This document shows positions 13,139 to 13,190 of a stretch of 64,000 bases of DNA, in pieces. Each line of letters starts with the position of its first letter. The first letter of the stretch is position 1. Below the pieces are notes generated by a model. The model did no database searches, was not told where the DNA came from, and saw only the letters and a list, made by a program, of their open reading frames with translations. Source of the DNA: a virus (taxonomy: Duplodnaviria > Caudoviricetes); IMG/VR virus record IMGVR_UViG_3300032030_002802, positions 64,001 to 128,000 of that record; one strand, written 5' to 3'. The translations under genes were made by a program, and so were the position numbers.

Positions 13139-13160
13139 TCTAATACCTCCTGTCGCACGT

Positions 13161-13190
13161 AGTATAGCATAAATCAGGCTCGGAATGCAA
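13161..13190 (-). promoter_or_regulatory. Sigma70-type promoter for the HNH gene inside intron 2
   Basis: TTGCAT-18 nt-TATACT with extended -10 TGn. Confidence 0.7.

Follow-up and report, generated by a model that had tools for sequence, protein, structure and literature searches.

The site at 13190-13161 on the minus strand of a 64,000-nt stretch of phage DNA (the window) is predicted, from its sequence, to be a promoter of the host type (sigma-70-like, extended -10) that is coupled to a ribosome-binding site of its own and drives an HNH homing-endonuclease gene lying within a group I intron of the phage DNA polymerase gene (polA); we put the probability of this reading at about 0.7. From the motif, its family in the genome, its conservation and the anatomy of the intron, all of which were computed, we infer promoter activity. 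Such a promoter would let the intron-borne nuclease be expressed independently of polA, like the intron nucleases of T4 td, nrdD and nrdB, and as T4 intron-borne nucleases with their own promoters have been known since 1988, a promoter as such is to be expected. What is new here is the geometry, in that the nuclease gene lies in L1 of the intron and the internal guide sequence of the ribozyme forms its last codons.

The window comprises bases 64001-128000 of an IMG/VR record of 199,078 bp (rated complete, 65% G+C) from an uncultured phage, for which sheep and bovine gut metagenomes are the best DNA sources. All of the promoter, intron and polA features discussed here are on the minus strand, and those of the promoter and the gene behind it are:

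13185-13190, minus: -35-like hexamer TTGCAT, matching TTGACA at 3/6, within an invariant block TTGCATT(C/A)CGA
13161-13169, minus: extended -10 element TGCTATACT, made up of TG (13169-13168) and TATACT (13166-13161), the latter after an 18-nt spacer from the -35
13153-13155, minus: predicted transcription start, some 7 nt downstream of the -10 hexamer, placed by standard sigma-70 spacing
13146-13151, minus: Shine-Dalgarno sequence AGGAGG, 7 nt before the ATG
12257-13138, minus: HNH homing-endonuclease gene of 293 aa (ATG at 13138-13136), assigned from PHROG families

An earlier note on this DNA had pointed out TTGCAT and TATACT with an 18-nt spacer, followed by AGGAGG, upstream of the HNH gene, and these can be read directly on the minus strand, with the promoter sitting 22 nt ahead of the strong AGGAGG-ATG pair. 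TATACT is a 5/6 match to TATAAT but the -35 matches TTGACA at only 3/6, which is why the site is missed by a simple sigma-70 scan and why the TG at 13169-13168, which the earlier note did not mention, matters; extended -10 promoters can do without a good -35. Several PHROG HNH endonuclease families match the 293-aa ORF (best E 2e-6), while a Pfam search of it at 0.01 gave no match and no relatives of the nuclease protein were found in viral_contigs. Four homologues of the nuclease (97, 82, 80 and 70% identical) each lie in the same two-intron polA context, and the ORF is intact in 5/5 copies (the window and the four homologues).

The site also belongs to a family of promoter-like sites in this genome, of which the following member had been singled out in the earlier note:

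23735-23750, minus: sister promoter-like site GATTTATGATATACTA, in the intergenic gap upstream of a 212-aa ORF

The single-base difference that had been reported between this sister site (23750-23735) and GATTTATGCTATACTA (13175-13160) was borne out, and it falls on the free 'n' of TGn. The sequence GATTTATGNTATACTA, with up to 3 mismatches allowed, has 4 matches in the window (all with 2 mismatches or fewer) against 0.09 expected, and TGnTATA(A/C)T occurs at 16 sites in the 199-kb genome against 0.83 expected (first-order Markov, 30 simulations, maximum 3), which is about 19-fold. Other TGnTATA(A/C)TA sites in the window are at 23744, 28390 and 41482 on the minus strand and at 34590 and 47991 on the plus strand, and several family members have a TATTGC-type -35. 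An ORF start was found downstream of 14/16 sites (by a loose ORF definition, one being an in-ORF look-alike that was later rejected), and the genes behind family sites include the helicase and the large terminase, so that replication and packaging alike are represented and, with both of these genes preceded by members, the family is not assignable to a temporal class. A matrix built only from the flanks of 14 other sites gave the site upstream of the nuclease gene a score of 11.3 bits (null -12.9 +/- 6.4), which 0.01% of random positions reach and which ranks it with the best members of the family. By both the count of sites and this flank score the site fits the same family as the phage's own promoters, in agreement with the match that had been claimed.

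One further candidate, TGCTATAAT, lies within the nuclease ORF (12343-12335, minus), about 70 nt before the guide, but it was rejected as a chance occurrence, its flanks scoring -14.8 bits and being random-like; it is an accident of Cys-Tyr-Asn coding, and more distant relatives have TAC AAC or TAC AAT in its place. A scan of viral and metagenome contigs with the 15-mer TGGTAAACTTCGGTA gave chance matches only, none with an intron downstream.

The gene that is host to the introns encodes a family A DNA polymerase that also has a UDG domain at its N terminus and a 3'-5' exonuclease domain, the UDG superfamily domain (Pfam PF03167, residues 30-166; about 15664-15253 of the window, minus) being fused to the exonuclease and polymerase domains. 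The intron borders were set by comparison with L002, a close intron-less relative that is 96% identical in the exon 3 protein. Positions 15808-13496 of the window align with L002 3684-5987 and positions 12054-11508 with L002 6000-6546, with exactly 12 nt between, and L002 reads uninterrupted through RISGKN-VNFG-ILYGRG, so that precise removal of intron 2 restores a collinear polA allele. The resulting layout is:

ending at 13495, minus: polA exon 1, from the L002 alignment
13494-13243, minus: intron 1, from the L002 alignment
13231-13242, minus: exon 2, 12 nt, GTAAACTTCGGT (VNFG), the same 12 nt lying between the flanks in L002
13230-12054, minus: intron 2, with its 5' splice site at 13231/13230, from the L002 allele
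12259-12278, minus: internal guide sequence, comprising the P10 guide CCGUAGAGAGAU (12278-12267) and the P1 guide GCCGAAGU (12266-12259), from pairing and covariation
12054-12258, minus: ribozyme core (J1/3, P3, P4, P5, P6, P7, P7.1, P8, P9 and P9.1), from RNAalifold apart from P7, with the terminal G at 12054
11508-12053, minus: polA exon 3 (ILYGRG...), with a Pfam DNA_pol_A match (E 3e-17) and collinear with L002

Two group I introns thus lie 12 nt apart within polymerase motif B (RISGKN/VNFG/ILYG), an arrangement kept in 4/4 nuclease-bearing relatives, with insertion sites at about 759/760 and 763/764 (by alignment to RRSAKAINFGLIYG). No Rfam match was found anywhere in the window at gathering thresholds; against RF00028, for which the gathering score is 50, intron 1 reaches only 39.2 bits (E 2.4e-7), and it alone is seen, the core of intron 2 giving no match to that model even at E 10. 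As Rfam misses its core, the membership of intron 2 rests on the intron-less allele and on covariation. For the core of intron 1 (13339-13489, minus), 71-73% identity was found with sequence that lies within the DNA polymerase gene of V5-like (Vequintavirinae) coliphages or close to it, and likewise in records labelled Campylobacter phage.

P1 of intron 2 consists of 8 bp without a mismatch, formed between the P1 guide and the 3'-terminal 8 nt of exon 2 (ACUUCGGU), with a U-G at the splice site, and the P10 guide is complementary to the 11 nt that open exon 3 (P10, 9+2 bp); in L009 and L011 both the P10 guide and the start of exon 3 are altered with the pairing preserved. The 20-nt guide is at the same time the last codons and the stop codon of the HNH ORF, and a GAAA linker stands between it and the core helices. 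The RNAalifold consensus of the core, from 5 sequences, contains P3, P4, P5, P6, P7.1, P8, P9 and P9.1 with 9 pairs showing changes on both sides, whilst the P7 pseudoknot GCAUA/UAUGC (12177-12173 with 12116-12112) was picked out by eye. In its 3' third the sequence is like known phage group I introns, for example the terL intron of Lactobacillus phage JCL1032. Intron 2 is a P2-less group I intron with the HNH gene within its L1, which is about 960 nt long.

This intron shares much with those known from phage family A polymerase genes (SPO1/SP82/Bastille, PhiI/W31, Pf-WMP3 and phiL7; PMC3428280), which are also IA-type, P2-less and HNH-encoding and lie in a conserved polA-type region. The nuclease gene is in P6a in Pf-WMP3, PhiI and W31 but in L1 here, and the known phage polymerase insertion sites correspond to E. 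coli Pol I 674, 676 and 881 whereas here two introns lie in motif B (PMC3428280). Nuclear rDNA group I introns (PMC3679873) do carry nuclease genes in peripheral helices, P1 among them, and a gene in P1 has the 5' splice site on one side and the remaining ribozyme on the other, but these introns are eukaryotic and nucleolar, encode His-Cys box nucleases and use unconventional expression with no bacterial-type promoter.

The promoter lies between the 5' splice site of intron 2 and the ATG of the nuclease gene, on the same strand as polA, and the predicted start at about 13154 would be 77 nt downstream of that splice site. No minus-strand terminator-like site was found between the promoter and position 11276. 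Because the gene is in L1 and the guide is its last codons, the nuclease mRNA would carry the guide, the whole core and exon 3 without a 5' splice site; the earlier note had described such an RNA, and given the predicted start it was correct by coordinates. Such an mRNA could not splice in cis, and ribosomes that reach the end of the ORF would sit over the guide and the beginning of P3. Its ribozyme and exon 3 tail is most likely a functionless by-product. Translation of the nuclease and formation of P1 would then compete for the same nucleotides, making this a natural and compact system in which to study how nuclease expression is balanced against the need to splice an essential polymerase gene.

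In T4, the td, nrdD and nrdB introns carry nuclease genes that have promoters of their own (PMC2988022) and, as they set the precedent, the promoter here is taken to serve nuclease expression. As in T4, an essential phage gene is interrupted by a group I intron (self-splicing in T4, and presumably here) that encodes a homing endonuclease, and the intron contains a promoter and a Shine-Dalgarno sequence that share the orientation of the host gene and lie within its transcription unit. The T4 promoters are phage middle and late promoters, unlike the sigma-70-like extended -10 site here. The end of the I-TevI ORF in T4 runs into the intron structure, and early translation, with ribosome entry into the core, lowers splicing (PMC2988022); with the ORF in L1, as here, the transcript would carry all of the ribozyme. 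In T4, moreover, a hairpin conceals the ribosome-binding site in read-through transcripts, and the promoter is autorepressed by I-TevI through a homing-site-like operator. A candidate hairpin of the former kind, in which a single-sequence fold pairs the -10 region with the Shine-Dalgarno sequence and AUG, was rejected (z = -0.86; absent from the five-sequence consensus), and a search for a homing-site-like operator at the promoter found nothing beyond chance, the best 20-mer matching at 13-14/20, a level reached by 12-20% of shuffles.

Conservation was assessed over 5 distinct intron sequences, these being the window and 4 diverged copies whose nucleases are 70-97% identical. The -10 reads TATACT, TATACT, TAGACT, TATGCT and TATAAT in the five copies, so that T1, A2 and T6 are constant and variation is confined to positions 3-5; the TG is invariant and the base that follows it varies (C, T, G, A, G). 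GGAG and the ATG are also kept in the five copies while the spacer and leader sequences vary freely. On the sequences compared, this is how conservation would be distributed over a promoter followed by a ribosome-binding site. The -35 hexamer is likewise invariant in the relatives, but it also lies inside a conserved RNA helix:

13179-13236, minus: conserved RNA hairpin of 58 nt at the start of L1, from RNAalifold, embedding the 5' splice site and the -35 block

This hairpin, which would be present only in the read-through pre-mRNA, has at its tip a covarying stem closed by a GNRA loop (CAUCC-GUAA-GGAUG, 13213-13200), and 92% of its cells are paired against 25-53% in slid controls, with 5 pairs changed on both sides. 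In the consensus fold the block TTGCATT(C/A)CGA pairs with the 5' splice-site region UUCGG-U-A(A/G)U, and because of this the conservation of the -35 is ambiguous and possibly due to constraint on the RNA, so that the case for a promoter rests mainly on the TG and -10 and on the fit to the family. The hairpin was also considered as P1 itself, with a local guide AUUCCGA near the 5' splice site, and this was rejected because the splice-site U is unpaired; the pairing is also broken in L013. The hairpin may instead hold or mask the 5' splice site until the guide, some 960 nt downstream, has been transcribed.

The RNA data are sparse. Two metatranscriptome runs from one sheep-gut sample contain short contigs that are 100% identical to the phage (for which DNA carry-over is possible), including 12754-12932 in the nuclease ORF and 12046-12224 in the intron core. 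They hold no spliced or chimeric joint, but are too sparse for this to be informative, and contigs cannot reveal RNA ends; the stretch 13004-13838 is without an RNA contig, a gap in coverage that is not evidence either way.

It is conceivable, though in our view unlikely, that no promoter is active here, and that the conserved letters reflect constraint on the RNA in L1 or shared descent, the nuclease being made from read-through polA pre-mRNA or from the excised intron. The TTGCATTCCGA block does pair with the 5' splice-site region in the hairpin, with some covariation, the -35 matches at only 3/6 in a site that the simple scan missed, and the comparison covers only five distinct sequences; moreover no conserved structure hides the ribosome-binding site in the read-through RNA, so that a separate promoter is not strictly needed. 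Against this, the TG and TAnnnT lie outside the predicted hairpin and have a -10-type conservation profile, the flanks fit the promoter family of the genome to a degree matched by 0.01% of random positions, and a good -35 is unnecessary for promoters of the extended -10 type. We consider it improbable that the promoter, if real, mainly feeds exon 3 and the genes after polA, or is the relic of a free-standing nuclease cassette, with expression of the nuclease being secondary. No terminator-like site separates the promoter from the genes that follow polA, and in T4 there are promoters for essential neighbouring genes inside homing-endonuclease genes, favouring the retention of the latter (PMC2988022). 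The 22-nt distance to the AGGAGG-ATG pair is however kept in the relatives, and therefore the nuclease is indicated as the first cistron, and the intron-less L002 has no such promoter at this place.

The earlier note had gone further in suggesting that an RNA without the 5' exon might be a natural trans-splicer, with polA mRNA from a co-infecting relative among its possible targets. It would join exon 3 to RNAs that end in ACUUCGGU, and these might also be polA transcripts from the phage itself that are truncated to their 5' part. We regard this as very improbable. Like designed trans-splicing ribozymes (PMC6155759) and the split group I introns that splice in trans in organelles (PMC2731911, PMC3873408), the predicted RNA does consist of a guide, a full catalytic core and a 3' exon with no 5' exon, and as P1 in cis already forms across about 960 nt, substrate binding resembles a two-molecule reaction. 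The likeness to engineered trans-splicers that had been drawn holds for this composition but fails for the arrangement: in the designed ribozymes (Sullenger and Cech 1994; PMC6155759) the guide is at a free 5' end, while here about 890 nt of translated mRNA would precede it, and it lies inside the translated ORF, where a terminating ribosome would also sit over P3. In the organelle split introns (PMC2731911, PMC3873408) the gene is discontinuous and trans-splicing is needed for its expression, whereas polA is a contiguous gene whose 5' splice site is supplied in cis, so cis-splicing is sufficient, and a reaction with polA RNA of the same phage would only yield what cis-splicing yields. As for targets in other phages, 0/6 intron-less relatives have ACUUCGGU at the site (they read ACUUCGGG, ACUUUGGU, ACUUCGGC, CGUUCGGC, ACUUCGGA and ACUUCGGC), and in 5/6 the cleavage position is occupied by G, C or A instead of U. 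The closest of them, L002, has ACUUCGGG, with a G at the cleavage position where the U-G wobble requires U; in L003, a distant relative (46% identical), the U is present but the site reads ACUUUGGU, with which wobble pairing is still possible. The 8-mer ACTTCGGT occurs only twice in the phage genome, one occurrence being the splice site itself. No chimeric or spliced joint was seen in the RNA contigs, uninformative as these are, and the presence of a nuclease promoter inside the intron is already accounted for by the T4 precedent (PMC2988022). With the target sequence in none of the six relatives and the guide within a translated ORF, we do not follow the proposal that the RNA acts on the polA mRNA of a relative. 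A variant that we hold to be just as doubtful is that intron 2 is optionally a two-piece intron, in which the nuclease mRNA would bind polA 5' transcripts in trans and complete the polA mRNA; the 5' partners would be read-through RNAs cut or terminated in the L1 of about 960 nt, or exon 1-2 RNA held in the hairpin at the 5' splice site. If true, phages and bacteria would thereby gain their first natural example of a group I ribozyme that splices in trans. Activity in trans in vitro is plausible chemistry and would not show a biological role, but the system offers a cheap test bed for whether a natural RNA of such a design can splice in trans.

Returning to the region of the nuclease promoter and the introns around it, some minor observations can be added. 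In-frame reading would meet stops at 13456-13458 and at 13174-13176 (minus), the second of which is a TGA within the promoter spacer; such stops are thought to stall ribosomes ahead of the ribozyme. One low-depth DNA contig joins 12177 to 13411, so that sequence resembling intron 1 (its 5' part) and sequence resembling intron 2 (its 3' part) stand on either side of 26 other letters, the shorter side being only 33 nt, and it is probably a related single intron of another phage in the sample. Compared with L002:5970-6015, the intron-bearing allele has synonymous changes clustered at both insertion sites (13495-13510, 13231-13242 and 12040-12053, minus), namely aac to aat, gtg to gta, ggg to ggt and atc ctg to att ctc, which create the U-G pairs and P10 and probably also protect against the nuclease.
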